Below are positions 1,332 to 59,005 of a stretch of DNA of 64,000 nucleotides, one piece after another. Under the pieces are notes generated by a model, which ran no database searches, had not been told where the DNA came from, and saw nothing but the letters and a program-made list of their open reading frames with translations. Source of the stretch: Bacteroidales bacterium (GTDB lineage Bacteria; Bacteroidota; Bacteroidia; Bacteroidales; NBLH01); NCBI GenBank assembly GCA_016937695.1, contig JAFGWC010000047.1, forward strand, positions 11,529 through 75,528, read 5' to 3'. The first letter of the stretch is position 1. The number at the start of each line of letters is the position of its first letter. The position numbers and the translations under genes are program-made.

Positions 1332-1349
1332 CTAATTAAAAACCTAAAC
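1332..1349 (-). repeat. Third, weaker copy of the terminator-proximal motif (GTTTAGGTTTTTAATTAG) in the 3' UTR of the T9SS GH13 gene
   Basis: It overlaps the last base of the TAG stop and is followed 14 nt later by the terminator hairpin at 1295-1318. Confidence 0.4.
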
Positions 1350-4141
1350 TATTCAACAATAAAACTCATATTTTGCTTAAAATCAACACAATAAACACTC
1401 ATATAATAAATTCCGGGAGATAACTTTCTTCCATTATTTTCAATTAAATTTAATCTTATTTTACTATTCCCTGAATTTATTTCAGCCACTTTCACATTTT
1501 CAAGTTTTTTCCCAGAAATATCATAAATATCAATAAAAATATTTTTTAAATCTTTACTTGAATTAATTTCAATATTTACAAAATCACTAGCAGGATTAGG
1601 AAATATTTTAATATTTTCAGTTGCAATATTATTATCATTCATATTTTCAATATCATCAACAATATCAGGAGTCTGTAATTTAACTGTAGTATATAGCCTA
1701 TATTCGCCAGGTGCTAAATCAATTGTTGAATTTACATTTGATACATCAATTTCATCACCGCTAAAATATTCATACCATTTACCTGTATTTTGAAAATTTG
1801 GATTTATACTAATATATCTAACATCAAAATTGCCCAAAACAGTAACTTTCATGTCGCTTCCATTCAAGTGAATGCTTTTATGAGAACCAACAATATCAAT
1901 TGTAAAATCAGAAGTTTCAAAAACATCATGCTCTTTTTTCAAATTAATTAATGCACTATACGTTTGATATAATCTATATCTGTTTTCTACACCATAATAA
2001 TCCCATTTAACTGGCTTTTTACCAGTTCTTCCATTATAATCTATACTATAATCGTAACCCAATTCGCTAAATTGCCACATCATTTTAGGTCCTGGAATTG
2101 TAAAAAAGAAAAGCGCATCTAACTCCATTCTCGCTAATGCAGTATTAATTTCTTTTGTATTGTATGAGCTGGAATAATTTCCATAATGTAATGTTCTATA
2201 CATAAGTCGCTCTTCATCATGACTTTCCATATATGTTACCAAATGTTTATCTGTCCATGTTCTTGATAAGTATGATGCCCAAGACAAATCAGAATTAGCA
2301 TTATCTGTCCATCCCATTGCAGCTTCGCTGTATTTTTCATTCATATTTCCCCACAATAACAAACCATAAGCTGACAACTCTTTTTCTTCAGAATTATCAG
2401 TCAAATGTTCTAAAATTACATATGCATCAGAATTTACCGAAATTATCTTATCATACATTCTTTTCAAAATCGAAATTCGTGAAGCATCATAAGCCCATCC
2501 ATCACCAATTGTATTAGTAAATCCTTTTGTAAAATCAAATCTAAATCCATCAAATTTATATTCTGTTAACCAATATTCATTAACTCTATCAATAAAGTTT
2601 TGAGTGTATATACTAGTGTGATCAAAATCATAACCCCATGAATATGAAGTATTTGGCGAATCAACATTATACCATGGATTTTCGCTAGTAACTTTCCATG
2701 TATTTTTATCAAGATATAATTGTACTAATGGCGATTGACCGTAAGAATGATTTAAAACTATATCCATTATCACAGCAATACCATTTTGATGACAAACATC
2801 TATAAATTCTTTTAATTTATTTTTTGTGCCATAGGCCTTGTCTGGGGCAAAATAAAATGAAGGATTATAACCCCAACTAATATTTCCTTCAAATTCATTA
2901 ATAGGCATTAATTCTATTGCATTTACACCTAATCTTACTAAATATTGAATAGTATCAACTAAAGTTTGATAATCTTCTGCTTCGGTATAATTACCAACCC
3001 AAAGTTCATAAACAACTAAATCTTCAACTTTTGGTGATGTAAAATCATTTACCTGCCAGTTATAAGATACTTGATTTGTTTGAAAAACAGATGCAATTCC
3101 TTCGGTTTTTCCTGTAGGATATTCAATTAAATCAGGATAAACATCATTTACAATATAATGATCCATCCAAGGATCAGAAGTTTTTTCAGTATAAGGATCA
3201 GCAATTCTAATATCCTCATCTACAAGATATTGGAAAATATATTCTTGTCCTGATGTTAAACCGCTTAAAGTAATCCAATATCTCATTTCAGGGTCTGAAG
3301 CATTACTTGTAGTTCTTTTCATTAAATAAGCAGTATTTATTTCCCAATTATTAAAATCACCAATAGCATAAACACTAGTTTTAAATGGAGCGTGTAAAAC
3401 TAGTGTAACTGTTGTACTATTAATATAATTTATTCCATCAATAACACCAACAGGTAGAGCTTCTACAACTGAAACTTCTCTGACAATATAATGTCTAATA
3501 TCTTCAACACTTGAAGTAGCATCACTAGCAATAACTTTAATTTCATGAGTTCCACTTGCAGCAGCTGTAATGTTATGTATAAAACTTAATTCAGTTGTTG
3601 AATAATTAAATACATCATCAATATAAACTTCAACTTGGTCTGCAAAGCTGGCAGCAACTTGTATATCAAAACTACCATTGGCATCAACAAAAATATATTC
3701 TTCTTCAGGTTGTGTAATTGCTAATGCTAAGCCTTCTTCAAATACATCAACAAAAAAATCCGTAGTTTGAGGAGTTCCTGTCGAACTTCTAAAAACAAAA
3801 CATAATTCAGTTACAACATCACCATCTCCAACATTATAAAAACCATTTATAGAAGGAATTACATCCAGCTCATATAAATCTGTTCCTATTCTTGTAAGTT
3901 TTGGCTGTGTTGTATTATTTCCCCATGTTCCAATAACATTTGCCCAACTAACACCATCAATTGTAACTCCTGTATGTGCATATACATCACCTGTATATCC
4001 TTCCAATCCTGTTCCAATAGCATTAAATTTAATAGTAACTGCAGCATTTTGTGTTGGTAAACTTGGATTAGTTGTAATAGTTTGAGAAAAAGATATATTA
4101 GTAAAATAAATTGCTAATAAAATTGAGAATAATGTTTTCAT
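1349..4141 (-). CDS. Secreted GH13 alpha-glucan hydrolase (CBM48/E-set-like module plus catalytic domain) with a type-A T9SS C-terminal sorting domain
   Basis: The signal peptide ends SFS|Q. There is an AIGDFNNWE...YWITLSGL CBM48-like segment and GH13 regions DIVLNHS, GFRFDFTKG, VILEH and YMESHDE. The C-terminus KIFPNPASDFVNIEI...GIYYMSVY is typical of the Por secretion tail. Confidence 0.85.
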   Translation of the reverse strand: MKTLFSILLAIYFTNISFSQTITTNPSLPTQNAAVTIKFNAIGTGLEGYTGDVYAHTGVTIDGVSWANVIGTWGNNTTQPKLTRIGTDLYELDVIPSINGFYNVGDGDVVTELCFVFRSSTGTPQTTDFFVDVFEEGLALAITQPEEEYIFVDANGSFDIQVAASFADQVEVYIDDVFNYSTTELSFIHNITAAASGTHEIKVIASDATSSVEDIRHYIVREVSVVEALPVGVIDGINYINSTTVTLVLHAPFKTSVYAIGDFNNWEINTAYLMKRTTSNASDPEMRYWITLSGLTSGQEYIFQYLVDEDIRIADPYTEKTSDPWMDHYIVNDVYPDLIEYPTGKTEGIASVFQTNQVSYNWQVNDFTSPKVEDLVVYELWVGNYTEAEDYQTLVDTIQYLVRLGVNAIELMPINEFEGNISWGYNPSFYFAPDKAYGTKNKLKEFIDVCHQNGIAVIMDIVLNHSYGQSPLVQLYLDKNTWKVTSENPWYNVDSPNTSYSWGYDFDHTSIYTQNFIDRVNEYWLTEYKFDGFRFDFTKGFTNTIGDGWAYDASRISILKRMYDKIISVNSDAYVILEHLTDNSEEKELSAYGLLLWGNMNEKYSEAAMGWTDNANSDLSWASYLSRTWTDKHLVTYMESHDEERLMYRTLHYGNYSSSYNTKEINTALARMELDALFFFTIPGPKMMWQFSELGYDYSIDYNGRTGKKPVKWDYYGVENRYRLYQTYSALINLKKEHDVFETSDFTIDIVGSHKSIHLNGSDMKVTVLGNFDVRYISINPNFQNTGKWYEYFSGDEIDVSNVNSTIDLAPGEYRLYTTVKLQTPDIVDDIENMNDNNIATENIKIFPNPASDFVNIEINSSKDLKNIFIDIYDISGKKLENVKVAEINSGNSKIRLNLIENNGRKLSPGIYYMSVYCVDFKQNMSFIVE

Positions 4142-4172
4142 CAGAATATAATTTAATTGTTTTTATTTGGGC

Positions 4173-4269
4173 TCAAGGAACACCCTGACAATTTATCAAG
4201 GAATTTAGAGTCATCAAATGCTATAATATTAATCGTGTTTGTGCTTGTGCACTATCATGGGTGTTTCAT
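4173..4269 (-). promoter_or_regulatory. Conserved bipartite leader element, copy C
   Basis: Coding strand reads ATGAAACACCCATG, then 70 nt, then GGGTGTTCCTTGA, then 31 nt, then ATG of the T9SS GH13 gene. The A-rich tract AAATAAAAACAATTAAA aligns with copy A. Confidence 0.55.
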
Positions 4270-4299
4270 CTTTTGTATTTTTAATCATCTAAAATATTT

Positions 4300-4332
4300 A
4301 AACTTAGCAAGCCATAAAGACTTGCTAAGTTT
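4300..4332. other. Second hairpin (12-bp stem AAACTTAGCAAG / CTTGCTAAGTTT) between the SusF-like terminator and leader copy C
   Basis: The inverted repeat was read directly. No clear T-run follows on either strand. Confidence 0.5.
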
Positions 4333-4376: not shown

Positions 4377-4405
4377 AGAAAAGCCCATGAAATATGGGCT
4401 TTTCT
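4377..4405 (-). terminator. Intrinsic terminator after the SusF-like gene
   Basis: A 12-bp stem AGAAAAGCCCAT / ATGGGCTTTTCT with a 5-nt loop, 12 nt after the stop codon. Confidence 0.8.
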
Positions 4406-25779: not shown

Positions 25780-28626
25780 TTAATTTACAATCATTTTTTT
25801 AGAAAAACAAAATTTATTGTTTATATAAACATCAACATAATAAATTCCATTCAAATTATGGGTTATAAATAAATTAATAGTTTTTTTATTTTCATTTTTT
25901 TCAAAATAATTTGTTTGAATAATTTTTCCGCCGGAATCTCTAATATAAATAATTCCCTGGCCAATAGCATCATTGTTAATTTCAAGATTAATAATATCGC
26001 TTGTAGGGTTTGGAAATATTTTAATATCATTTGTACCGATTTCAATAAAATCAGAATATCCTATGCAATTAAATTCTGTAGTAACTTGTAAAGAATATGT
26101 TCCGTTTCTATCTGAATTAGTAGGTATATTATAGAACTGTTTATTGGCGCCTTCAATATTCATTTCATTTTTAATCCACTGATAATGAGCTTGTCCGGAA
26201 TCCACACAAATAAGTAAATTATCGCCTTTTCTTAATATTTCAGGAATAACATTTGGCACAATATTTACAGGAAACCTTGATGTAACAGAGCATCCAATAT
26301 CAATTAATGTTTCGGTTAAATTAACACTTGCATTTTCGTTTGCGCCATACCAATCGACATAAATTGTTTCTAAATTATTTTCTTGTGTGATATTTCCACC
26401 ATCAATCCACCAATAATACTCTTTCTCGCTATCATAATTAACATAATAATTAATATTTTGCGAGTTTTCGCAAATTGTTGAGGCTCCTCTAATTTCTGAT
26501 AGCTCAACAACATTCACAAATATCTCAATATCAGCAGTTTGAGATTCAATTCCATCGCTAACTGTAACTATATATTTTGTAATTTGATCTGGGCTAACAC
26601 CAATATCTTTATCATTTGAACTAAATCCTACAGGCTCTGATGTCCATATATAAGTAAAATTTCCAAATCCACCACTTGGGTCTGCTGAAAGTGAAACTTC
26701 TTCTCCCTTACAAATATTTGTTTTGTCGTAAGTTATAGTCAAAGTTATGGGATCTGTTTCTATTTTTGATAATCCGCCCCATTGACCGCCAGACCATATT
26801 GCATTTCTTGAGGCATCAAAATATACTGCACTGATATAGCTTGATGCAAGTCCTTGATCTGTAGTTACTTTAGTCCAGTTTGTTCCATTAAAAATAGAAA
26901 TTACGCCATTTTTAGTTCCAAAATGTTTCACATCAGAATAATCAACATATACAGATGTTACTTCATTTCCGGCTAAACCGCTATTGCTTGTTTTGTATAT
27001 TATCCAATTAGTTTCATTATAGTATGCAACTCCTTCCGAACTGCCAATCCACACGCCTTTTCCTCCTGCGCTTTTTTCTGCATCTATTTTACTTAAATAG
27101 GCGCCTGAAGTAAAACCAATATTTATCAGACTATATGTTTTCCAAATCGTACCGTCAAATTCTGTAACGCCGTATGGATGTAAAAACCAAATATGATTAT
27201 TTATATCAACAGCGATTGAAACTACTTCGTTGTTTAGTAGTCCATCAGTTGTTGTATAATTTGTCCATGAAGTTCCATCATAAAAAGAAACACCGACATT
27301 GGTTCCGAACCATTTGTATCCATTTTTATCAATTGCAACACTTCTCACATTGTCATCTATTATGCTGCTATTCAAATGATTATAAGTTATCCATGTAGTA
27401 TAATCATAAAATCCGACACCATAATCTGTTGCACACCAAATTTCACCTGATACAATATCAATATCTCTAACAATATTGCTTGGTATTTCCGGCGGCATTC
27501 CTGTAATCTTTTGATTATTCCATGTAGTATTTCCATCAAAAATACTAAGTCCGCCGCCTTCTGTTGCAATAAGGACATTTCCGCTTCCATTAACTAAAAT
27601 ATCGTTAATATCGCTTTTTGGCAGATTTTCTGGTTCAACATAAGGCATAGGAATTCCCGTAACTGAATAATCAGTTGCTTTTTGAACTCCATTTCCTAAT
27701 TGTTCAAAACCAGCCCAGCCTGCGCCTGTATCATCGCATGCAAAAACTCGTATATCGTTTAAAATCCACATTGCGCTCCATGGCTCCCATGTTCCAGTTT
27801 CATAATAATAAACTCCCAATTGCGTTGCAGCACTTGGCTTTCCATCATTATTAAAAGTTATATCTGTAACAAAATTATTAGTAAAACCATTATAATTAGA
27901 CCAAGCACCATCATATCTTGAAACTCCGCCACCGGCAGTGCCTACATATATAATTCCTTGTCGAGCAGCAACAGAAGTTAAATTATAACCTGAAATATTC
28001 ATTTGAGTTTGAGTGTACATTTGCCATGAATTATTACTTCCGTTAAAAACAAATAACGAATTTGGTGTAGCACAATAAACCATGTATCCATCGGCATAAA
28101 TATCAACAACATCAGAAATTGTATGTCCATTTCCATCATCAGAATAATGTACAAAATTGTTTGAGCTAGAATATCTTCTTACTCCATCAGGCGAAGCAAA
28201 CCAAACGGAATTATCACCTTCAACAGTAATTGCATTTACATGATTGTTCATATTGCTGTTTTCAGAATTATAAATAATCCAATCCGTTCCATTATAGAAT
28301 GTTACACCATTATCAAAAGACCCAAACCATTTATTTCCCAAATTATCTATTGCGATTGAAATAATAAAATTACTTGATAAACCATTAACATTTTCTTTAT
28401 TATATTTTACTTGTGTTTCGCCTGAAGATAAACTAAGATTTACTACTCCGCTTTTTGTTCCCAGCCAAATAGTATTTTCGGTTGAACTGCCTGATATAGT
28501 GTCAATTGCAATTGCAAACACATCGTTATAATTATAATAATTTGTTATGTTTGGCTGTGATTTTAAGTTTGAGTTAATTATTAAATAAAAAAATGTTAAA
28601 ATAATAAGTAATCTTCTATTTTTCAT
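25780..28626 (-). CDS. T9SS-secreted protein: ~2 beta-propellers of 'two-component regulator propeller' repeats, Ig-like modules and a type-A sorting domain; no kinase or regulator domains
   Basis: The signal peptide ends LKS|QP. It has many W.GT..G...Y/F repeats (IWLGTKSGV, KWFGSFDNGV, VWFASPDGV, KWFGTNVGV and others) and the C-terminal KIFPNPTSDIINLEI...GIYYVDVY. Confidence 0.8.
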   Translation of the reverse strand: MKNRRLLIILTFFYLIINSNLKSQPNITNYYNYNDVFAIAIDTISGSSTENTIWLGTKSGVVNLSLSSGETQVKYNKENVNGLSSNFIISIAIDNLGNKWFGSFDNGVTFYNGTDWIIYNSENSNMNNHVNAITVEGDNSVWFASPDGVRRYSSSNNFVHYSDDGNGHTISDVVDIYADGYMVYCATPNSLFVFNGSNNSWQMYTQTQMNISGYNLTSVAARQGIIYVGTAGGGVSRYDGAWSNYNGFTNNFVTDITFNNDGKPSAATQLGVYYYETGTWEPWSAMWILNDIRVFACDDTGAGWAGFEQLGNGVQKATDYSVTGIPMPYVEPENLPKSDINDILVNGSGNVLIATEGGGLSIFDGNTTWNNQKITGMPPEIPSNIVRDIDIVSGEIWCATDYGVGFYDYTTWITYNHLNSSIIDDNVRSVAIDKNGYKWFGTNVGVSFYDGTSWTNYTTTDGLLNNEVVSIAVDINNHIWFLHPYGVTEFDGTIWKTYSLINIGFTSGAYLSKIDAEKSAGGKGVWIGSSEGVAYYNETNWIIYKTSNSGLAGNEVTSVYVDYSDVKHFGTKNGVISIFNGTNWTKVTTDQGLASSYISAVYFDASRNAIWSGGQWGGLSKIETDPITLTITYDKTNICKGEEVSLSADPSGGFGNFTYIWTSEPVGFSSNDKDIGVSPDQITKYIVTVSDGIESQTADIEIFVNVVELSEIRGASTICENSQNINYYVNYDSEKEYYWWIDGGNITQENNLETIYVDWYGANENASVNLTETLIDIGCSVTSRFPVNIVPNVIPEILRKGDNLLICVDSGQAHYQWIKNEMNIEGANKQFYNIPTNSDRNGTYSLQVTTEFNCIGYSDFIEIGTNDIKIFPNPTSDIINLEINNDAIGQGIIYIRDSGGKIIQTNYFEKNENKKTINLFITHNLNGIYYVDVYINNKFCFSKKMIVN

Positions 28627-28657
28627 CTGTTTATTTTTAAATTGTTTTTAATTTGCC

Positions 28658-28754
28658 AGATGGAACATCCACTATCTCAGGCATTTGTATGTTTAGAATC
28701 TGTTCGTAATAATCATGTCCTAGTGTCAAAATTTACTTGGCATGGTTGTTTCAT
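28658..28754 (-). promoter_or_regulatory. Conserved bipartite leader element, copy A (block 1 at 28658-28670, block 2 at 28741-28754)
   Basis: Coding strand reads ATGAAACAACCATG, then 70 nt, then GGATGTTCCATCT, then 31 nt, then ATG. Homologous blocks occur at 58943-59005 and 4173-4269. Confidence 0.6.
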
Positions 28755-28995
28755 CATACTAATTTTAAATATTACTGCATAAGTATAAAAATAATCAAAA
28801 AATAATAAAATACAATGCAATTTATAATTGAAATATCAATATTGTTTATTTAATGGATATAATATTATTCATTCATTATATTTTCATGTTAGAATTTTAA
28901 TAAAAACTCATAACTAAACTACATTTATTAAAATATTCTAAATTTATAAAAATTGAATATGCTTTTATTTTTAAAAATTACAAATTACATTATTT

Positions 28996-30323: not shown

Positions 30324-31433
30324 TTATATTTTTTCTATTAATTTTATTTGAAATAGTTTAGGCCAATATTTTCCTGTTACAAATAATCTATCTCCCTTTT
30401 TATCATAGGCAATTCCATTTAAAACATCGGTTGATTTTTCATAATCTTTTTGAGGGAGAATTCCGCTTAAATCTATATATGCTTTAACTTTTCCTGTTTT
30501 GGCTTCAATAATTGCAATTTTGTTTGTAGTATAAATATTTGCATATATTTCACCATTTATATATTCAAGCTCATTTAAACTTTTTACAAATGTCTTATTA
30601 TCATATACTTCCAACTTATCAACCTGCGAATATGATTCTGTGTCTAAAAAATAAAGTTTATTTGTTCCATCGCTCATTATCAGATTATTTTCGTTGTCTG
30701 TTAAGCCCCAACCTTCTGTTTGATAATTAAACTTCATTAAAAGTTTAAAACTTTCTTTATCATAAATAAAACCTGTATACGACTGCCAGCTAAGTTGAAT
30801 AATTTTATCTTTAAAAATAGTAATTCCTTCACCAAAAATTTCAGGAGCTATTGTAAAAGACTGTATAACATCTCCACTTGCTAATTGTACTTTTCGCAAA
30901 GTAGATTCTCCTCTTTGTCCTGTTGCTTCGTATAAAAATCCGTCTAAATAAACTAATCCTTGCGTATATGCAGCTCTATCATGGTTAAAGGTATTTATAA
31001 CTTTGTACGAATATTCTTTTGGAATTATATCAGAAAGCATTGTAACAGATAATTTACTGGTTGAGTTTCCTGTTTTATAAAACGTTCTCACTTTAAAATC
31101 TATTCTGCCAACTCGCGAATCAATTGAATTCCAATCTATTACAGCCGGCAGTTCGTTTTTTGTTTCAATTAAATTATTATTTACATAAAACTTAACAGAA
31201 TCAATTTCAATAGTATCCTTATTTTCGATTGAAAACTTTAGGATTTCGCCTATTTTATGTTTATCACTTTTATTTTCGTTTAATATTTTAAATTCAATAT
31301 TTAATTCGTCTGCATTGCTTTTACTATTTACATTCTCAACTAAATTTGAATTTGTGTCTTTATTACTTTTATTGTTACTGCATGAAACAATAAAAAATAT
31401 CAAAACAACTAAAATGTATATTAATCTTCTCAT
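30324..31433 (-). CDS. Glutaminyl-peptide cyclotransferase (beta-propeller, plant/bacterial type) lipoprotein with an extra N-terminal Ig-like module
   Basis: Lipobox IVSCS. The motifs YTQGLVY.DG.LYE.TG..G.S.LR, FGEGIT, EGWGLT, MSDG...L.F.D and LNELEY..G..YAN are as in glutamine cyclotransferase propellers. Confidence 0.8.
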   Translation of the reverse strand: MRRLIYILVVLIFFIVSCSNNKSNKDTNSNLVENVNSKSNADELNIEFKILNENKSDKHKIGEILKFSIENKDTIEIDSVKFYVNNNLIETKNELPAVIDWNSIDSRVGRIDFKVRTFYKTGNSTSKLSVTMLSDIIPKEYSYKVINTFNHDRAAYTQGLVYLDGFLYEATGQRGESTLRKVQLASGDVIQSFTIAPEIFGEGITIFKDKIIQLSWQSYTGFIYDKESFKLLMKFNYQTEGWGLTDNENNLIMSDGTNKLYFLDTESYSQVDKLEVYDNKTFVKSLNELEYINGEIYANIYTTNKIAIIEAKTGKVKAYIDLSGILPQKDYEKSTDVLNGIAYDKKGDRLFVTGKYWPKLFQIKLIEKI

Positions 31434-33808: not shown

Positions 33809-35848
33809 ATGAGTTTTAAATATAAAGAAATAAAAAATATATTCATTTTAATGATTTTGCATTCTGTATTTATTTTTTTTAATACAGAATTAGCTCAAAG
33901 TCAATTTTATTTTGGTGGAGATGGCGATGGACATTCGAAAGAAACTGCCGATAATGTTAATTTTTCAACAATATCAGAATCGATTAATGTGCTTAGTGTT
34001 AGCTCTTTAAATAACAATAATACATACGGAATAGGTGAAATAATAAGAATAACAGTAACATTTTCTGGAAACGTAACAGTAACTGGAAATCCGAGAATTT
34101 TACTAGAAACAGGCTCAAATGATCGTTATGCAACATACAATTCAGGAAGCGAAAGCTCAATTTTAATATTTACTTATACAATCCTTCAAGGAGATATTAG
34201 TTCAGATTTAGATTACAATAATATAAACTCAATTGATTTAAACGGCGGTTCTATAATTGATGAAAATGGATTATATGCATGTTTAACATTAGCAGAACCA
34301 GGTACAACTAATTCATTATCAGCAAATAAAGACATTGTTATTGATGGAATAAAACCAATAGCAACAATAGATTTAAATCCGCTTCAAAATTCAATTACAA
34401 ATACATCGCCAATAAAATTCAGAATAACATTTAGCGAAAATGTAACAGATTTTGATGAAAATGATGTGAACTTATCAGGAACTGCAAATCCACAAAATGT
34501 AAATATAACAGATTTAAATCAAAGAGAATTTATTGCAGAAATAAGCGGAATGTTAAATGACGGAACAGTTGTTATAAACGTTCCTGCTGATATTTGTCTT
34601 GACAGAACTGCAGGAAATAATAATGGAACAAGCATAATAACACACAATACCGTAGTTTACGACACAAATAAACCGGAAGTTGATATAACTTTAGACGCAA
34701 CACAATCCACGCCATCGAATAGCACAGTTATTAATTTTAATGCTAATTTTTCTGAAACAGTTAATAATTTTGACAATAGTTCAGTTGAATTATCAGGAAC
34801 TGCAAATCCAACAACAGTAGATGTTAGAGGCGGACCTTTAAACTACACAATTGAAGTAAGTGGAATGACAAACGACGGAACAGTTTTAATTAATATTCCT
34901 GCCGATCAATTAACAGATAATGCAGGAAATTTAAATTTAGCATCAAATAATATTCAAAATCAAGTAATTTACGACACAGAAAAGCCTGAAATAACTATTA
35001 GTTCTACAGAAACAAGCCCAACAAGCCTAGTTTTAATACCATTTTCTGTTGATTTTACTGAAGAAGTAACAAATTTTGATATAAATGATATTGAAATTAC
35101 AAATGGCAGTATTGATAATTTAAATTCAGTAATTTCAAATAAAAAATGGACAGGCGAAATAACACCAATATCAGAAGGAATAATTAGTTTGCAAATATCT
35201 GATAATAAAGCATTTGACTTAGCAACAAATGGAAATATCGCCTCAAATATATTTGAAATTGAATATCTAAATTTTAACAATGCACCAGAAATTCTAAATC
35301 AAACTTTTTATATTAACGAAGATATTGAAAATGGTTTTATAGTTGGTAATATTATTGCTAATGATATTGATGGCGATGATATATTATTTAATATAAAATC
35401 AGGCAATATTGACAATATTTTTGATATTGATACTTATAGTGGAGAAATATCTGTAATTAACTCTGAATCAATAAATTACAACATTACTGCAAAATATGAA
35501 TTAACAATTGAAGTTGAAGATAACAATTCAAACAGTAAAAAGTCGGAAGCATTAATAACAATAAATATAATTGATGTTGAAGATAATTTTGAAGCAAATA
35601 ATGTTTTTACACCAAACAGCGAAAAAAATAGACTTTGGAAAATAAAAGATGTAGAAAAATATACTGATTTTGAATTAATAATCAGAAATAATTCAGGAAT
35701 TATTGTTTATAAAACAAAAGCTTATAAAAATGATTGGAACGGTACTTATAACAATAAACCTTTACCAACCGGAACGTATTACTATATTTTATCAAATTTA
35801 ATAACAAAAAAAACATATTCGGGTTTTATTAATTTAATAAATGAATAA
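33809..35848 (+). CDS. Surface adhesin-like protein: tandem Ig-like domains, a cadherin-like repeat and a type-B T9SS C-terminal domain (CHU_C / gliding-associated CTD)
   Basis: The signal peptide ends LA|QS. Three ~105-aa repeats carry (F/V)(T/N)(D/N)FD..(D/S)(V/I)(N/E)L(S/T)G(T/S) motifs. The cadherin-like NNAPE...ANDIDGDD...IDVEDN is followed by the C-terminal NVFTPN....N..W.I......F.L.I.N..G..VY.......WNG......LP.GTYYY. Confidence 0.8.
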   Translation: MSFKYKEIKNIFILMILHSVFIFFNTELAQSQFYFGGDGDGHSKETADNVNFSTISESINVLSVSSLNNNNTYGIGEIIRITVTFSGNVTVTGNPRILLETGSNDRYATYNSGSESSILIFTYTILQGDISSDLDYNNINSIDLNGGSIIDENGLYACLTLAEPGTTNSLSANKDIVIDGIKPIATIDLNPLQNSITNTSPIKFRITFSENVTDFDENDVNLSGTANPQNVNITDLNQREFIAEISGMLNDGTVVINVPADICLDRTAGNNNGTSIITHNTVVYDTNKPEVDITLDATQSTPSNSTVINFNANFSETVNNFDNSSVELSGTANPTTVDVRGGPLNYTIEVSGMTNDGTVLINIPADQLTDNAGNLNLASNNIQNQVIYDTEKPEITISSTETSPTSLVLIPFSVDFTEEVTNFDINDIEITNGSIDNLNSVISNKKWTGEITPISEGIISLQISDNKAFDLATNGNIASNIFEIEYLNFNNAPEILNQTFYINEDIENGFIVGNIIANDIDGDDILFNIKSGNIDNIFDIDTYSGEISVINSESINYNITAKYELTIEVEDNNSNSKKSEALITINIIDVEDNFEANNVFTPNSEKNRLWKIKDVEKYTDFELIIRNNSGIIVYKTKAYKNDWNGTYNNKPLPTGTYYYILSNLITKKTYSGFINLINE

Positions 35849-37484
35849 AATTATATTTAATAAAAATAGAACTATTATAAAAATATTAAAAAATATTTTT
35901 GTATTTATTATCATTACTTTTTACAGTAATATTGTCATTTCGCAAACAATATTAAACAGCAATTTGTATTTTATTAATAAATATCAACTAAATCCGGCTT
36001 ATACAGGTTCAGAAGGTTCGCTATATTCTTTTTTAAATTATAGAAATACAAGCTCTTTTGTTGAAGGAGCTCCTGTTTTTTTCAGCTTATCGTTACACTC
36101 TCCTTTTTTTGATAATATGGGCGCAGGATTAAGATTTTCAAATACAAAAGAAGGCTTATTTAACAATACTAATGCTTTTATAGATTATAGATATAAAGTT
36201 AATTTTAAAGCCCAACAAAGTATCAGTTTTGGAATATCTGCAGGTTTGGAATCGAACAAAATGGATTATGGATTAATAATAGCTGAAAACCAAGCTGCTA
36301 TTATTGATGTTGCTTCAAAAAATTATGTAGGAACAAATTTTGAAACTTCGGCCGGCATTTCTTATAAATTTAAAAATTTAGATTTAGGATTTTCTATTCC
36401 ACAACTATTTGAGAATAAGAATATTATTGGTCTTTCTTATGTAACAATTGCCAATTATAATTATCAATTAAAAAATAATAATATTGAACTAAAACCATCT
36501 TTATTATTTGTAAAAAATCCAAAATCATTAGTTTTATACGATATAAATCTACAAACAATTTGGAAAAAACAATATTGGCTTGGAATTTCGTATAAAAACA
36601 GGCCAGGTTTTGTTTTTTCGGCAGGATTAAGTTTTATAAATTTAAACATTGGATATGCAATTGAAATTGGAACCGAAAAATATTCAAACATTTTTAATCA
36701 AATTCATGAAATAAGCATTGCTTATAATTTTAAAAAAAAGATAAAATCGCCAAATGATAGCCTTTTTGTAAATAATAATTTATTAATAATCAAGAATACA
36801 ATCTCAATAAAAAAAGACAGTTCTGCAAAATCAGAAAAAAATATTACCAAAAGCATAAATAATACAGATTCAACAACAATAAAATCAGTAGAAAATATTA
36901 TTATAAACAAATCTGAAAATACCGACGATATTAATAAAACTAAATTTAAAGAAACAGGTAACGGAGTTTATATACTTCACAATTCGGTAAGCGATACAAA
37001 TAATTTTGAAAATCAATCAGTTGATAGTCTTGTAATTAATTCAATGCTTGATGATATTGAAAATAAAAAAACGAATAATTTAAAAGAAAATTTAGATACA
37101 CTTGAATATGTTGAAGTAGGAAACGGAATTTACAGAATAAAAAACAATAAAACCAATCAATATATTGATTTTAAAAACGATAGCATAAGCGAAGAAATAT
37201 TAAATTCTGTAATTTTTGAAGAAAAATCTAATAAAACTCAAAAAAAGCAAGCAACAAATAAAATTCAATATACATTAAAAATACATATTGATAATTCAAA
37301 TCAAGTAATTTTGTACGAACCGAAAATATCAGAAAAAATACATCCGAAAATAAATAAAGAAGGAAAAATAGATTACTATTACGGAAAATATAATAATATC
37401 GAAGAAGCAAAAAAACAAATTGAAATTCTGAAAAAATCGGGTATTAAAAATGCCGAAATTGAAACAATTAATCCAAATAAATAA
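35841..37484 (+). CDS. PorP/SprF-family T9SS outer-membrane protein fused to a long low-complexity linker and a C-terminal SPOR-like domain
   Basis: The start overlaps the adhesin stop (ATGAATAA). The N-terminal ~300 aa carry the PorP/SprF hallmark (YQLNPAYTGSEG..., beta-strand pattern). The last ~70 aa, YTLKIHI...IDYYYGKYNNIEEAKKQIEILKKSGIKNAEI, fit the SPOR beta-alpha-beta-beta-alpha-beta pattern. Confidence 0.7.
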   Translation: MNKIIFNKNRTIIKILKNIFVFIIITFYSNIVISQTILNSNLYFINKYQLNPAYTGSEGSLYSFLNYRNTSSFVEGAPVFFSLSLHSPFFDNMGAGLRFSNTKEGLFNNTNAFIDYRYKVNFKAQQSISFGISAGLESNKMDYGLIIAENQAAIIDVASKNYVGTNFETSAGISYKFKNLDLGFSIPQLFENKNIIGLSYVTIANYNYQLKNNNIELKPSLLFVKNPKSLVLYDINLQTIWKKQYWLGISYKNRPGFVFSAGLSFINLNIGYAIEIGTEKYSNIFNQIHEISIAYNFKKKIKSPNDSLFVNNNLLIIKNTISIKKDSSAKSEKNITKSINNTDSTTIKSVENIIINKSENTDDINKTKFKETGNGVYILHNSVSDTNNFENQSVDSLVINSMLDDIENKKTNNLKENLDTLEYVEVGNGIYRIKNNKTNQYIDFKNDSISEEILNSVIFEEKSNKTQKKQATNKIQYTLKIHIDNSNQVILYEPKISEKIHPKINKEGKIDYYYGKYNNIEEAKKQIEILKKSGIKNAEIETINPNK

Positions 37485-45916: not shown

Positions 45917-48184
45917 CTATATGTCAAAATCTTTTTGAATTATAACTTGTTCTACTCCTTTTATATTTCTAAGTTTTTCTACAAGATTATTAATTACTTC
46001 ATTATCAGCAATATATATATCAACCATGCCATAAAATTTATTATGTAATGTATCAAAATGGAGCGATTTTATATTAATATCAAGTTCAACTGCAATTATA
46101 GAAGTTACTTTGTTCGCTAATCCTGCTATATCTTCGCCTGTAAGTTCAATTCTATATAGTTTTGAGGCAATTTCTTGAGCTGTCCATTTTGCTTTTATTA
46201 TTTCCTTACATTCCTGATTAATGTCAGATTTAAGCTCCTTACAATTTGATTTATGGATACAAATTTTTCCTTCATCACTTTCACAACCAATTACTTCATC
46301 GCCCGGAATAGGATTACAGCAAGAAGCTATTTCAATAAAAGAATTTAACTTTAACTCATCAATTTTAATTTTAGATTCCTTATGTTCAAGAGTTTTCAAT
46401 AAATCAGTTTCTGAAAACTGTAATTTCCAGTATTTTACAAATTTATTTGTAGATTTTTCTTTTATTATTTTAATTAATACAATTTTATCAATTGTTTCGT
46501 TACCAATTTGAAGATATAAATCCTTTTTAGTTGATAAATTAAAATATTTTAGCGTTTTTTTTAAAATTTTAAAATCAATAATGATTTTATTTTTTGCGAT
46601 GAGATATTTAAATGCTTTTTTCCCTTCTCTGATGTAATATTGTTTTTCTTCATTAAAAACTTTGCTTAGAGCTTTTTTAGCTTTGTTTGTAACAACATAA
46701 TTAAACCACTTTTCAACCGGTCTTTGATTGCTTGATGTTAAAACCTCAACAATATCGCCACTGCTAAGTTGATAATTTACAGGAACAACAGTTCTTCCAA
46801 TTTTTGCACCAATACATGATAAAGCTATATCGCTATGAATTTCAAAAGCAAAATCTAAAACAGTAGCGTCTTTTGGCAAAGTAATAATTTTACCTTTTGG
46901 TGTAAATACAAGTATTTCAGATGAAAATAAATTTATATTAAAACTATCAAAAAAATCTAAAGTACTTTCTGAGTTTCCGTTTAATTTGTCTTTTATTTCG
47001 CCAATCCAAACATCTAGTTCAGATTTTTTATCTTCAATACCTTTATATTTCCAATGAGATGCAAATCCCATTTCGGCAATTTCATTCATTCGTTTAGAGC
47101 GAATTTGTACTTCAACCCATCTGTTTTGAGGACTTAAAACGGTTAAATGTAAAGCTTCATAACCATTTTGTTTAGGTTGAGTTATCCAATCTCTTATCCT
47201 TCCTGGATTAGCTTTTTCGTATATTTTTGTAACGCTTGAATATATTTTCCAACATTCTTCAATTTCTTTTTCAGGTGAACTTGGATTAAAAACAATTCTG
47301 ATAGCAAATAAATCATAAACTTCTTCGAATCTAATATTTTTCTTTTGCATTTTAGACCAAACAGAATAAATTGATTTTGCTCTTCCATCTATCTCGAAAT
47401 CAATATTTTGTAAGCTTAAAGATTTAATAATTGGTAATGAAAAATTAGTTATAAACTGAATCCTTTTTTTTTCTGTACCTGAAATTTTACTTGCTATTTC
47501 ATTGTAGATTTCGGGATGTTTAAATTTTAAACTTAAATCTTCAAGTTCGGTTTTTATATTATATAAACCAAGCCTATGTGCTAATGGAACATAAACATAT
47601 AAAGATTCCGCAACTGTTTTTAATTGTTTTTTTTCTGAATATTCTTTAATTGTTCGCATATGATGCAAACGGTCGGCTATTTTTATAAATATAACTCTAA
47701 TATCTGCAGAAAGAGTTAAAAGTATTTTTCTAAAAGCTTCTGCTTGTACAATATTCTGACTATCAATTACTTCTCTTATTTTGGTTAAACCAGATAAGAT
47801 TGAGGCAATTTTATCGCCAAAAATAGTTTTAATGTCTTCAATTTGGATGTCTGTTTCATCAACAATATCGTGCAAAAGCGCAACTATTGCTGATTTAGTG
47901 CCAAGTCCGATATCATTAACTACAATTTTAGCAACATTTATTGAGTGTTCTATATAATATTCTGAAGGATTTTTTTTAATTCCTTTAAATGCGTTATTTG
48001 CAAAATAAAAAGCTTTCCATAATAATTCTTGATCTTCATTCTTCTTTAATCTTCTGCATTTAGTAATAAAATCTTTAAATTTTTGTATACTTTCTTTTTC
48101 AACATTTTCATACTCATCATTTATTTTTTTGTCTGAAAAAAGTTCTTTATCCTGACTTTTTATTTCTTTTTCAACTACGCTCAT
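45917..48184 (-). CDS. Long RelA/SpoT homologue 1: intact (p)ppGpp synthetase motifs, partly divergent hydrolase motifs, plus TGS, Zn-finger and ACT/RRM regions
   Basis: Hydrolase region: H..HD is present, but LLHDIVDET replaces HDxxED and ADRLHHMRT replaces DRLHNMRT. Synthetase motifs are intact: GRAKSIYSVWSKM, YDLFAIRIV, GRIRDWI, GYEALHLTV, EVQIRS and ASHWKYK. TGS is VFTPKG..ITLPKDATVLDFAF and the Zn finger is CCNPIPGD. Confidence 0.85.
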   Translation of the reverse strand: MSVVEKEIKSQDKELFSDKKINDEYENVEKESIQKFKDFITKCRRLKKNEDQELLWKAFYFANNAFKGIKKNPSEYYIEHSINVAKIVVNDIGLGTKSAIVALLHDIVDETDIQIEDIKTIFGDKIASILSGLTKIREVIDSQNIVQAEAFRKILLTLSADIRVIFIKIADRLHHMRTIKEYSEKKQLKTVAESLYVYVPLAHRLGLYNIKTELEDLSLKFKHPEIYNEIASKISGTEKKRIQFITNFSLPIIKSLSLQNIDFEIDGRAKSIYSVWSKMQKKNIRFEEVYDLFAIRIVFNPSSPEKEIEECWKIYSSVTKIYEKANPGRIRDWITQPKQNGYEALHLTVLSPQNRWVEVQIRSKRMNEIAEMGFASHWKYKGIEDKKSELDVWIGEIKDKLNGNSESTLDFFDSFNINLFSSEILVFTPKGKIITLPKDATVLDFAFEIHSDIALSCIGAKIGRTVVPVNYQLSSGDIVEVLTSSNQRPVEKWFNYVVTNKAKKALSKVFNEEKQYYIREGKKAFKYLIAKNKIIIDFKILKKTLKYFNLSTKKDLYLQIGNETIDKIVLIKIIKEKSTNKFVKYWKLQFSETDLLKTLEHKESKIKIDELKLNSFIEIASCCNPIPGDEVIGCESDEGKICIHKSNCKELKSDINQECKEIIKAKWTAQEIASKLYRIELTGEDIAGLANKVTSIIAVELDINIKSLHFDTLHNKFYGMVDIYIADNEVINNLVEKLRNIKGVEQVIIQKDFDI

Positions 48185-48227
48185 ATGCTTTAATAGTCAA
48201 TAATTGCTTTAATACAATATAACAAAA

Positions 48228-48270
48228 TTTGATGTAAAATAAAAGCAAAATATATATATTTTACATCAAA
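48228..48270. other. 13-bp perfect inverted repeat (TTTGATGTAAAAT-17-ATTTTACATCAAA) 44 nt upstream of the RSH-1 start
   Basis: Read directly. On the minus strand it is followed by ATTTTGTTAT. Confidence 0.5.
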
Positions 48271-48444
48271 CTAATAAATTACTTGATTTATTAAACATCA
48301 TTAATTAAAGTGAAAAATATTACAAATTTAAACTTATGATAATCAACTAGTTACAATTAAATTAGGTTTTGGTTTAGATTTTTTGAGATATTTTATAAAT
48401 CTGCATTACTTATTTTTTGTAAGTAATTAGTATACTGATAATTA

Positions 48445-48479
48445 GTCATTAAAAATATTAGAAGTTTATTTTTAATGAC
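48445..48479. other. 13-bp perfect AT-rich inverted repeat (GTCATTAAAAATA-9-TATTTTTAATGAC) ~100 nt downstream of RSH-2
   Basis: Read directly. It is a possible weak terminator of the RSH-2 operon. Confidence 0.4.
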
Positions 48480-48577
48480 CAATTACTAATCTATACTTTA
48501 TAATCACCTATCAATCAATACAATACAAATAATTTTACGCATCACAAAGTATTTAAACTATAGCGTTCAATTTAAAA

Positions 48578-56839: not shown

Positions 56840-58912
56840 TTAATTACTTAATATTTTAGCTTCAACACGTCTGTTTTCTTGTCGTCCGGCTTCGGTTTTA
56901 TTTGTTGCTACAGGAAATTTAAAATATAAACCAACAGCTTTTAAGTTTGCATCTTTAACGCCTTGTCCTTTTAAATAATTAACTACTGATTTTGCTCTTG
57001 CCAGCGATAATCTGGTATTTACAGCTTTTGAACCTCTGTTATCTGTATGTCCGGATATTTCAAGAACTAAATTTGGGTATTTTTCAAACATTTTTGCAAG
57101 TCTGTTTAACTCAGAAAAAGACTCTGAACGCAAAGTTGATTTTCCGCTATCGAAAAAAGTATTGTAAAGAATAATTTTTGAACCAGGCGTCATTGGTTGT
57201 AAAGCAATATTTTTATAAATCTCGTTAAATCCGCTTGCCGCAGGAACAATAAAGTACTCTGAATGAAACATATAGCCATCAGCATTAACAGACATACCAT
57301 AATTTTTTCCTGTAGGTAAATTTACTGTATATGCGCCGGTATTTATATTAGATTTTACTTTTTTTAATAATTTTCCGTTTGCATTATCAACTATCTCTAT
57401 ATCAGACTCTAATGGTTTTCCTGTATTAAAGCCGGTTACTGTTCCTTTAACAATTGTCATTTCGGTGTATGTAATTTTTAAAGGTTCTTCATAAAATCCG
57501 TCATATACAGGATTAACCAAACTTGCAATTAAATCAATATCATCATTAGTTAAAAGAGGTTTTTCCGGTCCTAATAAAACAACATGATAAATATCTAATT
57601 GTCCTATTCCATCTTCGCGTGAACTTGAATAATAAGCATCTCTGTTATTTTTTTGGATATTAAAAAATAAATCATCATCAGGACTATTAATAGGTATTCC
57701 CATATTTTCAGGCTCATTCCACTCACCATCAATCATTTCTGATTTAAAAATATCATATCCACCAATTGTATTATGTCCTTTAGAACTGAAATACATAAAT
57801 TTTTCATCTGACGTTATATAAACGGAAGCTTCGTCATATTCTGTATTTATAGTAGCACCAATATTTTTGGGTTTCGACCATTTATTTGAGTTTTCAGGAA
57901 GTTCTGTTACATAAATATCTCTTCCACCTAAATTATTTTTATCAATATTACTAACAAAATACATTTTTTTTCCATCAGCAGTAAAACAAATTGAAGATTC
58001 GTTAGATTTATTACTATTTACTTTCTGTGATATTTCATGTATATTTTTCCATCTTCCATCATTTTGTGTTGCAGAATATAAATCGCCACCATCTTCTCTT
58101 CCTCGATAAATAATTAATTTTTCACCATCTTCTGATAATTCAACAGCTGCATCATTCCATTTTGTATTTATAGGTTCGCCAATGTTAGTAGCACTTTCCC
58201 ACTTTTTTCCATCCTTTTTAGAAACATAAATATCTTCATAAAATTTATCATCAATTGGGTTTAGTCTGTCTTTTTCTTCGCCTCTTCTTGAAGTAAATAT
58301 CATATAATCGCCATCTGTTGATAAAACTGCATTATAATCATCATAAACAGAATTTAACTCTTCATCAATATCATCAACTAATGCTCTGGTAATATTTTTT
58401 TCAATTTTCAATCCATTTTCACATTCACTTATATATTTATCAATTATTGGATTAAATTTTTTTTCTTGACTTTTTGTCAATGCATCTTTATAAGAACTAT
58501 ATTCGATAATTGCTTTGTTAAATTCTGAATTTAAATGTAAAGCTCTTGCTAATAAAAATGAGCTTTTTGGATGCACATTAAATTTTAATTCAATAGCTTT
58601 TTGTATAAATTTTAAAGATTTAGTTTTAGGATAAGATCTCAAATATGAAATCCCTAATAATAAATTCAATTCAGCATTTTCAGAATTATATTTGTATGCT
58701 TCTTCATAAAATTTTACAGCTTTTAAGTAACTTCCTGCACGATGTTGAAAAAACTGAAAATTTCCCTTAGAAATATTATCCCAAGCCGTTTTAAAGCCTT
58801 CTTCTGTAACTTTAAATTCTTTTTTATTTACATATATTCTTTCTTGAGAATAAGAATTTAAATTAAATATAAATAATAATATAATCGAAATAATAAATTT
58901 AGTTAATTTCAT
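56840..58912 (-). CDS. PorE-like T9SS-associated protein: TPR, TolB-type PD40 beta-propeller, carboxypeptidase-regulatory-like domain and an OmpA_C peptidoglycan-binding domain
   Basis: The signal peptide ends YS|QE. It has TPR-like helices and PD40 repeats (LSTDGDYMIFTS, LSEDGEKLIIY, FTADGKKMYFVS, ITSDEKFMYFSS). The CRD is VKGTVTG..TGKPL.S.IEIVD and the OmpA_C motif is GHTDN.GS...N..LS..RA..V..YL. Confidence 0.7.
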   Translation of the reverse strand: MKLTKFIISIILLFIFNLNSYSQERIYVNKKEFKVTEEGFKTAWDNISKGNFQFFQHRAGSYLKAVKFYEEAYKYNSENAELNLLLGISYLRSYPKTKSLKFIQKAIELKFNVHPKSSFLLARALHLNSEFNKAIIEYSSYKDALTKSQEKKFNPIIDKYISECENGLKIEKNITRALVDDIDEELNSVYDDYNAVLSTDGDYMIFTSRRGEEKDRLNPIDDKFYEDIYVSKKDGKKWESATNIGEPINTKWNDAAVELSEDGEKLIIYRGREDGGDLYSATQNDGRWKNIHEISQKVNSNKSNESSICFTADGKKMYFVSNIDKNNLGGRDIYVTELPENSNKWSKPKNIGATINTEYDEASVYITSDEKFMYFSSKGHNTIGGYDIFKSEMIDGEWNEPENMGIPINSPDDDLFFNIQKNNRDAYYSSSREDGIGQLDIYHVVLLGPEKPLLTNDDIDLIASLVNPVYDGFYEEPLKITYTEMTIVKGTVTGFNTGKPLESDIEIVDNANGKLLKKVKSNINTGAYTVNLPTGKNYGMSVNADGYMFHSEYFIVPAASGFNEIYKNIALQPMTPGSKIILYNTFFDSGKSTLRSESFSELNRLAKMFEKYPNLVLEISGHTDNRGSKAVNTRLSLARAKSVVNYLKGQGVKDANLKAVGLYFKFPVATNKTEAGRQENRRVEAKILSN

Positions 58913-58942
58913 CTGTTTATATTTTTAATATTTTTATAGGTT

Positions 58943-59005
58943 AGATGGAACATCCTTGAAAATCAATCCCTTTCGTGTTGATTTTTTTCTACATGTATGT
59001 TTCAT
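58943..59005 (-). promoter_or_regulatory. Conserved bipartite leader element, copy B
   Basis: Coding strand reads ATGAAACATACATG, then 36 nt, then GGATGTTCCATCT, then 30 nt, then ATG of the PorE-like gene. Confidence 0.6.

Follow-up and report, generated by a model that had tools for sequence, protein, structure and literature searches.

A structured repeat fused to ATGAAA start codons throughout Bacteroidota, apparently undescribed

Three minus-strand genes in a 64,000-nucleotide stretch of a Bacteroidales genome (assembly GCA_016937695.1, contig JAFGWC010000047.1, positions 11,529 to 75,528; hereafter the window, with G+C content of about 27%) are each preceded by a copy of a repeat that ends on the start codon of the gene. 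The repeat, or unit, present here as copies A, B and C, begins with block 2 (ATGAAACAnnCATG), continues through a variable interior to block 1 (GGRTGTTCC), and reaches the gene through an A-rich linker. Its parts form three putative helices: P1 between block 2 and block 1, P2 in the interior, and P3 between an anti-start segment adjoining block 1 and the start codon itself. The blocks were located by exact pattern search and the host genes, which lie outside the repeat, were characterised by their Pfam domains; CTD denotes a C-terminal domain and T9SS the type IX secretion system.

28621..28754, minus strand: copy A, whole unit from ATGAAAC to CAGATGAAA; long class with a 93-nt core, aligning with long-class units elsewhere
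28741..28754, minus strand: copy A, block 2, comprising the left ATGAAA (putative former start codon) and the 5' arm of P1
28671..28740, minus strand: copy A, interior with the P2 hairpin CAAG..UUUUG, the conserved ACAC..CAUGAUUAU and an extra long-class module of about 35 nt
28662..28670, minus strand: copy A, block 1, GGATGTTCC, the 3' arm of P1
28657..28662, minus strand: copy A, anti-start CAUCUG, complementary to CAGAUG at 28629-28624 (P3 of 6 bp)
28630..28656, minus strand: copy A, A-rich linker, by its position profile a putative element-borne translation-initiation region
28621..28629, minus strand: copy A, right end, CAG followed by ATGAAA; the ATG at 28626 starts gene A
25780..28626, minus strand: gene A, Reg_prop beta-propeller with type-A CTD (Por_Secre_tail)
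58907..59005, minus strand: copy B, whole unit of the canonical 59-nt core class, recognised by the covariance model
58992..59005, minus strand: copy B, block 2
58947..58955, minus strand: copy B, block 1
58942..58947, minus strand: copy B, anti-start CAUCUA, forming 5 of 6 pairs with CAGAUG at 58915-58910
58907..58915, minus strand: copy B, right end, CAG followed by ATGAAA; the ATG at 58912 starts gene B
56840..58912, minus strand: gene B, PD40 and OmpA domains, PorE-like
4136..4269, minus strand: copy C, whole unit of the long class, recognised by the covariance model with P3 mismatches flagged
4256..4269, minus strand: copy C, block 2
4177..4185, minus strand: copy C, block 1, GGGTGTTCC
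4136..4141, minus strand: copy C, right ATGAAA; the ATG at 4141 starts gene C
1349..4141, minus strand: gene C, alpha-amylase with type-A CTD (Por_Secre_tail), last gene of a starch polysaccharide-utilisation locus

Each block matches the 64-kb window exactly three times, always at these copies. With one mismatch allowed in block 2 the window yields 4 matches, compared to a mean of 0.71 in shuffled sequences, and the combined two-block pattern, which occurs three times, was absent from 100 dinucleotide shuffles. The distance from block 2 to block 1 is 70 nt in A, 36 nt in B and 70 nt in C, and the 13-nt version of block 1 defined in an initial annotation of this sequence lies 31, 30 and 31 nt, respectively, from the start codon. 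A covariance model built from 48 copies outside the window recognised A, B and C only (B, 73.7 bits, E 1.2e-11; A, 43.9 bits, E 5e-06; C, 40.6 bits), the next-best sense-strand match scoring 17 bits. The coordinates and spacings reported in that annotation, as well as its claim that no other gene start in the window carries the blocks, are thus borne out. Copy C combines a perfect P1 with a degenerate anti-start (CUUGAG) and a degenerate P3.

The initial annotation had suggested that a covariance model be used to look for the repeat in other genomes, and further copies are indeed abundant. A scan with the strict two-block pattern, covering one genome per GTDB species, returned at least 120 stretches with at least 132 instances; among the matches listed, these come from at least about 68 assemblies, several of which carry 6-10 copies. 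All but 2 of the listed stretches belong to Bacteroidota or Chlorobiota, with carriers among Bacteroidales, Marinilabiliales, Flavobacteriaceae, Cytophagales and Chitinophaga, and the model recognised neither of the two outliers (Rhodoferax and a Lachnospiraceae contig). Carriers available in culture include Galbibacter orientalis DSM 19592, Yeosuana aromativorans, Sinomicrobium oceani and a Mariniflexile sp. The most common core measures 56-60 nt, as in copy B; copies A and C represent a class with a core of 92-94 nt and an extra internal module, and across the family the blocks stand as little as 26 nt or upwards of 80 nt apart. Within the fetched loci, the covariance model detected additional, more divergent copies. 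No match to the pattern was found among PLSDB plasmids, and of 8 matches in IMG/VR viral contigs the model recognised one, L132:7805-7917 (3300006226_001713), located between an endolysin-like gene and a small membrane-protein gene. The other viral matches are 46 nt long and go unrecognised by the model; the three that were read, L128, L130 and L131, are one conserved sequence without unit features downstream. A long-linker subfamily (L002, L007, L012, L022, L104 and L117) carries a conserved linker of about 80 nt, ATCCGCTCGATAATGACTGTTAAAAGCTAGAAGGTAATGT..., after block 1; in the long-linker unit of L117, the right end GCGGATGAAA matches the unit's own anti-start AUCCGC.

From 5' to 3', a unit consists of AUGAAAC, the 5' arm of P1, the P2 hairpin, the segment ACAC..(G)AAUGAnUAU, the 3' arm of P1, GUUCC, AU-nnn, ACC, an A-rich linker of about 22 nt, and n'n'n'-AUG-AAA, where the primed triplet is complementary to nnn. 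The anti-start CAU-nnn is formed by the final C of GUUCC together with AU-nnn. The base of P1, AUGAAAC/GUUCCAU, is invariant and includes one A.C mismatch, and among 72 units the variable pair of the helix is U-A 43 times and C-G 24 times, with no pair formed in 4. Looser copies have alternative P1 stems (CGCCC/GGGCG; C-GA-GC/GC-GA-G with tandem GA/GA; CC/GG), with AUGAAAC and GUUCC unchanged.

The pairing of the anti-start with the start codon region is also evident from comparison of the copies. In 56 of 93 units, the exact reverse complement of the anti-start triplet stands immediately before an ATG located 20-48 nt downstream, whereas permuted partners matched in 13 units on average and in 24 at most (2000 trials of a test that does not select for pairing). 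When the starts were chosen by the downstream open reading frame (ORF) alone, 85.6% of the cells paired, against 25-40% with a slid partner, and the covariation score of P3 was 0.205 compared to 0.107 +/- 0.007 after shuffling, a value reached in none of 500 shuffles. At least 8 complementary types of anti-start and start triplets occur, and in L021 a CAC lies opposite a GUG start. The P2 hairpin is moderately supported, with at least 5 consecutive pairs in 51% of the units versus 22% with permuted partners. G.U wobbles number 103 on the sense strand versus 27 of the A.C type, which correspond to the other strand, an indirect hint that the unit may be transcribed within the mRNA leader. Thermodynamic folding predicts that P1 and P3 form side by side and that the start AUG is largely paired (median unpaired probability 0.05). 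Folded singly, the 3 window copies are no more stable than shuffled sequences (z from -0.4 to -0.8), so the case for the structure comes from comparison between copies. Covariation in a larger alignment, which the initial annotation had set as a check, is present for both P1 and P3; its proposals that block 2 pairs with block 1, that block 1 is complementary to the start region and that block 2 resembles that region (AUGAAAC mirroring the ATGAAA start) are all supported.

Block 1 together with the anti-start (CATGGRTGTTCCATCTG) is, except for one A.C mismatch, the reverse complement of the junction between a right and a left end, CAG|ATGAAACAYCCATG, which arises wherever one unit abuts another, as in tandem arrays. 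At the right end, codon 2 is AAA in 50 of 59 units, and the seventh base is C in 30% of units compared to 14% of controls. A mini-ORF encoding MKHP* is present in 53% of units; a conserved upstream ORF or leader peptide was nevertheless rejected because frames and stops are not conserved and the upstream AUGs are almost never read into the gene. In about 22 of the 132 units, the GC-rich palindrome CCTGyCTGCC-N4-GGCAGrCAGG separates GUUCC from CAU, with the anti-start pairing retained. Its carriers span several subfamilies and genomes (L002, L003, L013, L022, L025, L031, L032, L046, L048, L052, L099, L104, L106, L116 and L117), and Flavobacteriaceae copies (L053, L070 and L115) have CCTGTGCTGAGCGCAGTCGAAGCATG at the same point. 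The insert could be either a second small repeat with a site preference of its own or an optional stem.

Several lines of evidence point to insertion as the origin of the copies. The metagenome-assembled genome (MAG) CAZOSQ01 has five copies at unrelated loci that are near-identical over 163 nt; the identity begins exactly at ATGAAAC and stops at ...TTATGATGAAA, the flanks are unrelated, and 3 of the 5 copies have no gene at the 3' ATG. Likewise, seven copies in JBMFQE01, 91-96% identical, lie upstream of unrelated genes. At gene B, four related genomes (60-72% protein identity) retain the gene order DUF4154, DUF4154, tetratricopeptide-repeat (TPR) gene, OmpA gene with spacers of 15-77 nt that contain no unit, as opposed to 159 nt in the window; JBNKJW01 carries a unit elsewhere (L090) and none at its gene B ortholog (L122). 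Two syntenic orthologs of gene A (49% and 38% identity; an SDR gene followed by the propeller-CTD gene) also lack the unit and begin with ATGAAA after an ordinary A-rich leader, and at the 49% ortholog an outer-membrane protein gene comes next, matching the order in the window. A metagenome scan for relatives of gene A returned only distant paralogs (at most 31% identity).

Furthermore, units form tandem arrays in L015, L043, L051, L067 and L113, and because subfamilies are mixed in the arrays of L015 and L117, such arrays appear to arise by repeated insertion at a like site rather than by local duplication. Over the 25 nt that precede block 2, the base profile matches that of control genes starting with ATGAAA, including the A peak at -12/-11, and the linker of the element is a sharpened version of this native profile. 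In L049, L084 and the viral L132, the TGA of the upstream gene overlaps the ATGA of block 2, as at a coupled native start.

On balance, we favour the view that the copies represent an insertion element, dispersed and non-autonomous, which measures about 95-165 nt, is found throughout Bacteroidota, lands on ATGAAA and rebuilds the start site. The left ATGAAA would be the former start codon of the gene, with the native A-rich initiation region still upstream of it, and the right ATGAAA the current start, supplied or regenerated by the element along with an A-rich initiation region of its own. Integration would be site-specific at ATGAAA, by an enzyme that is not among the genes found in about 1 Mb of flanking sequence. 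The complementarity of GUUCCAU-nnn to both the left junction and the element's own right end suggests a role in recognition of ends and target, perhaps in a single-stranded or RNA-guided reaction. Pairing of a guide with the cleavage site is known in the IS200/IS605 family of insertion sequences (IS), and bridge or seek RNAs in IS110/IS1111; by analogy, GUUCCAU-nnn may act in a comparable manner.

In the mRNA, P1 and P3 are predicted to fold, with P3, at an estimated net stability of about -3 to -4 kcal/mol, occluding the new AUG. Bacteroidota rely on unstructured A-rich leaders rather than on Shine-Dalgarno pairing (Baez et al. 2019, PMC6847099), and because the phylum depends on such leaders, a helix that masks the start would be expected to lower or condition translation. 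The element thus probably damps or conditions the translation of the recipient gene. A more far-reaching proposal, which we regard as speculative and rather unlikely, is a phylum-wide, self-propagating start-codon cassette: pairing of the guide GUUCCAU-nnn to the target and to the ends of the element would integrate it at ATGAAA and replace the initiation region, and the anti-AUG would toggle between the decoy and the real AUG around the A.C mismatch, bringing dozens of unrelated genes per genome under common control.

Several observations weigh against an insertion element. The empty sites come from relatives rather than from a filled and an empty site in close genomes, and the direct ATGAAA repeat that flanks each copy could be either a duplicated target or the core of a recombination; the inverted arms are subterminal and on one side only. 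The fetched flanking loci, about 1 Mb in all, contain neither a cognate mobilising transposase or recombinase nor an autonomous version of the element (ATGAAAC and arm, then the complementary arm and GTTCC, 0.1-8 kb apart). The phylum-wide invariance of AUGAAAC/GUUCCAU and the optional hairpins at a fixed junction are RNA-like traits, less typical of a plain transposable element of the miniature inverted-repeat type (MITE), and the covarying stems together with the sense-strand G.U bias are more typical of a functional RNA under selection. Moreover, the scan pattern fixes the sequence of the blocks, so that the diversity of the family and the copy number per genome may exceed what it shows. 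Finally, all 3 window copies precede T9SS-linked genes, of which there are about 7 among some 40 genes, a pattern that is unlikely to arise by chance if ATGAAA starts are ignored.

An alternative that we consider possible, albeit unlikely, is a genuine class of cis-regulatory RNA, a translational switch with a protein or some global cue as its trigger, in which CAU toggles between the base of P1, with its 5' AUG look-alike, and the real start, the A.C mismatch keeping the two states poised. Duplication or a mobile carrier could have spread such an RNA, and the explanation is compatible with a mobile origin. Three covarying helices, the wobble bias, a conserved single-stranded ACAC..AAUGAUUAU, the predicted pairing of the start codon, the preservation of P3 in the units with optional stems at GUUCC^CAU, and the nearly invariable fusion of the copies to a co-oriented ORF are all in accord with this explanation. 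However, a switch of this kind is hard to reconcile with the lack of a coherent regulon (165 Pfam families among the matches listed), with orthologous sites devoid of the unit, or with same-genome paralogs that are near-identical even in loops and linker. In addition, no gene follows at the 3' ATG of L020, L091 and L119, the copies in the window show partial degeneration, P3 being lost in copy C, single-copy folds are indistinguishable from shuffles, and no Rfam family matches. Less probable still is a regulatory site in double-stranded DNA, either inverted half-sites for a protein or a promoter for an extracytoplasmic function (ECF) sigma factor; we regard this as a very remote prospect. The blocks are inverted repeats, and TGAAAC, the would-be -35 element, presumably resembles ECF -35 boxes. 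Nevertheless, the arms covary rather than being conserved, their spacing varies from 26 to over 80 nt, pairing extends to the start codon, the wobbles favour the sense strand, and the units of the family share neither TAnnTTTG nor another box at a fixed distance upstream of block 2.

An IS110-family element found at the same junction suggests a more specific version of the insertion-element explanation. In the Prolixibacteraceae MAG CAXXMN01, a 1.5-kb element encoding PF01548 (DEDD_Tnp_IS110) and PF02371 (Transposase_20) lies at L011:1876-3407 and also in L076 and L113, in tandem in two of these loci, and has entered three different units, in each case precisely behind the right-hand ...TATATTCnGATGAAAC. 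Its right end regenerates the linker and GGATGAAA, so that the host gene keeps a start codon. The unit junction is thus a recognisable multi-copy target for an IS110-family element, and regenerating ATGAAA is a viable course for an element landing on a start codon. The 3' non-coding region of this IS includes three segments containing GGATGAAA, candidate guides of a bridge or seek RNA. The units themselves could then be miniature IS110/IS1111 derivatives, a left end joined to a right end and mobilised in trans through a DEDD recombinase and its bridge or seek RNA. The junction layout is the same (ATGAAAC|left end ... linker and GGATGAAA), the IS left end, ATGAAAC-CCTCATGC, resembles block 2, and part of its 3' region, GTGGATGAAACTGGCCTAATTAACT, resembles the local block 1 and linker, although these resemblances were noted by eye and have no statistics behind them. 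Against such a derivation, the IS copies are more than 99% identical and the flanking units about 88%, which identifies the units as targets rather than as parts of the IS, and the IS occurs in 1 of the approximately 68 unit-bearing genomes in the fetched loci. For the latter reason, we rejected it as the general mobiliser, and we find the miniature-derivative explanation quite improbable.

The remaining explanation is the one put forward in the initial annotation, namely that the repeat is a leader or regulator site specific to T9SS-linked genes, for example under PorX/PorY/SigP-type control of cargo and components. The domain content of genes A, B and C is as described there. However, these are not the full T9SS set of the window, and the following T9SS-linked genes carry no unit:

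33809-35848: CHU_C (type-B) T9SS cargo gene
50813-52366: second CHU_C T9SS cargo gene
35841-37484: PorP/SprF gene, overlapping the preceding CHU_C gene
30324-31433: glutaminyl cyclase gene

None of these 4 genes starts with ATGAAA. The location of all three window copies ahead of T9SS-linked genes is the observation in favour of a T9SS leader; elsewhere the association disappears. Among the matches listed, the 112 distinct downstream proteins outside the window comprise 165 Pfam families, each in at most 3 proteins, and Por_Secre_tail occurs in 2 of the 112. Unit-bearing genes range from cytoplasmic housekeeping genes (DHFR, PGK and DXR) to TonB receptors and an IS transposase, and the T9SS genes orthologous to A and B in related genomes lack the unit. 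Signal-peptide-like N-termini were found in 44.6% of unit genes, 45.7% of control genes with a Met-Lys start and 26% of all ORFs. Because ATGAAA (Met-Lys) starts are typical of signal-peptide genes, the bias toward secreted proteins is that of any gene with such a start, and the apparent link to secretion is fully explained. The repeat has no T9SS specificity; the enrichment that the initial annotation had anticipated is absent, and the T9SS-leader explanation, to which we assign only a negligible probability, is largely refuted.

If the copies are insertion elements of the kind we favour, many Bacteroidota genomes carry small start-codon elements that leave a fossil of the old start behind and determine, for housekeeping and envelope genes alike, which initiation region is used and how accessible the start is. 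This would be relevant to the tuning of translation in a phylum that does not use Shine-Dalgarno sequences. For gene annotation, the duplicated ATGAAA and the short upstream ORFs could mislead start-codon calls. To the repertoire of mobile DNA, the element would add a start-codon-specific target and a guide-like self-complementarity, with a junction that is exploited by an IS110-family element; if the cassette and its switch both hold true, a new class of mobile element and a new class of cis-regulator would be combined in one. The results also call for caution in motif-based inference of regulons, given that a widespread repeat looked secretion-specific within a 64-kb window.

Some other features of the window deserve mention. 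The starch-utilisation locus (1349-24317) encodes SusC-like, SusD, SusE, SusF/E-like and CTD-amylase proteins on the minus strand and a LacI-family regulator, a major facilitator superfamily transporter, a GH65 phosphorylase and three GH13 enzymes on the plus strand. Upstream of copy C, between it and the SusF/E-like gene, the minus strand has two hairpins resembling terminators, one formed by AGCCCAUAUUUCAUGGGCU with a U-run behind it and the other by AAACUUAGCAAG...CUUGCUAAGUUU (4378-4400 and 4290-4322), which suggest that gene C may have its own promoter just 5' of block 2. Tandem RelA/SpoT-homolog genes (45917-50806) encode proteins of 755 and 742 aa, each with HD_4, RelA_SpoT, TGS and ACT domains.

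Comparison with known systems brought up no precedent for the repeat. At the gathering score, the window has no match to Rfam 15, four loci and two isolated units yielded nothing meaningful when scanned by E-value, and full-text literature searches with motif strings and related concepts returned nothing relevant, in line with the earlier impression that this is not a recognised cis-element of Bacteroidota. Resemblances considered by eye did not hold up: a CsrA-type GGA site is missing from the GGGUG variants, a hammerhead core would require a GAAA that is not present after stem II, and likenesses to a T-loop and to CRISPR repeats were dropped. CsrA is, to our knowledge, not known from this phylum.

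Translational riboswitches and RNA thermometers share with the units a start-occluding helix, here predicted, along with a CAU strand common to P1 and P3; the units differ in lacking a ligand-type regulon and a match in Rfam 15 and in being insertion-like. Integron attC sites are likewise imperfect inverted repeats with ..AAC and GTT.. boxes and a conserved mismatch, located just upstream of the next ORF. However, the boxes of the units, ATGAAAC and GTTCCAT, do not fit RYYYAAC/GTTRRRY, and their neighbours are housekeeping genes in conserved synteny rather than cassettes, with no integrase context.

Among mobile elements, IS200/IS605 members insert beside a short sequence that is always the same, produce no variable target duplication, possess a subterminal hairpin, and pair an internal guide segment with the cleaved or targeted sequence at their ends, much as is proposed for the units. 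By contrast, the units have one hairpin instead of separate left-end and right-end hairpins, a canonical pairing of 6-9 bp about 25 nt from the hairpin, and no TnpA or TnpB gene nearby in the fetched loci. IS110/IS1111 elements insert site-specifically into repeated sequences and have a core in common between their two junctions, as may hold for the units, whereas the units are non-coding, about 100 nt long and devoid of a DEDD recombinase. Transcribed MITEs such as Correia (of Neisseria), ERIC and RUP/BOX are small and non-autonomous, are transcribed together with adjacent genes, fold into hairpins and can alter expression, all of which would apply to the units as well; unlike the units, they have terminal inverted repeats and target duplications that are variable or a dinucleotide, and they neither join a start codon nor rebuild an initiation region.

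The REP and REPIN sequences associated with RAYT (TnpA_REP) are similar to the units in being short, hairpin-forming, non-coding multi-copy repeats with inverted arms around a spacer, in forming near-identical populations within a genome and in serving as landing sites for IS110/IS1111-family elements. However, the units lack the GT[AG]G (or CGTC) foot and have AUGAAAC/GUUCCAU at the base of the hairpin; they occupy start codons, co-oriented with the gene, rather than 3' or extragenic space; and their terminal motifs are phylum-wide as opposed to lineage-specific. The table of REP sequences in Quentin et al. 2018 (PMC6006769) does not contain ATGAAAC, and with no GTAG foot present, a RAYT/REP link was rejected. 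Taken together, the repeat has neither a cognate transposase in the approximately 1 Mb of fetched loci nor classical terminal inverted repeats, and the genes it precedes form no coherent set; it shares with cis-regulatory RNAs a structure backed by covariation, and with MITE- and REP-like elements near-identical, sharply bounded copies at unrelated loci and empty orthologous sites.

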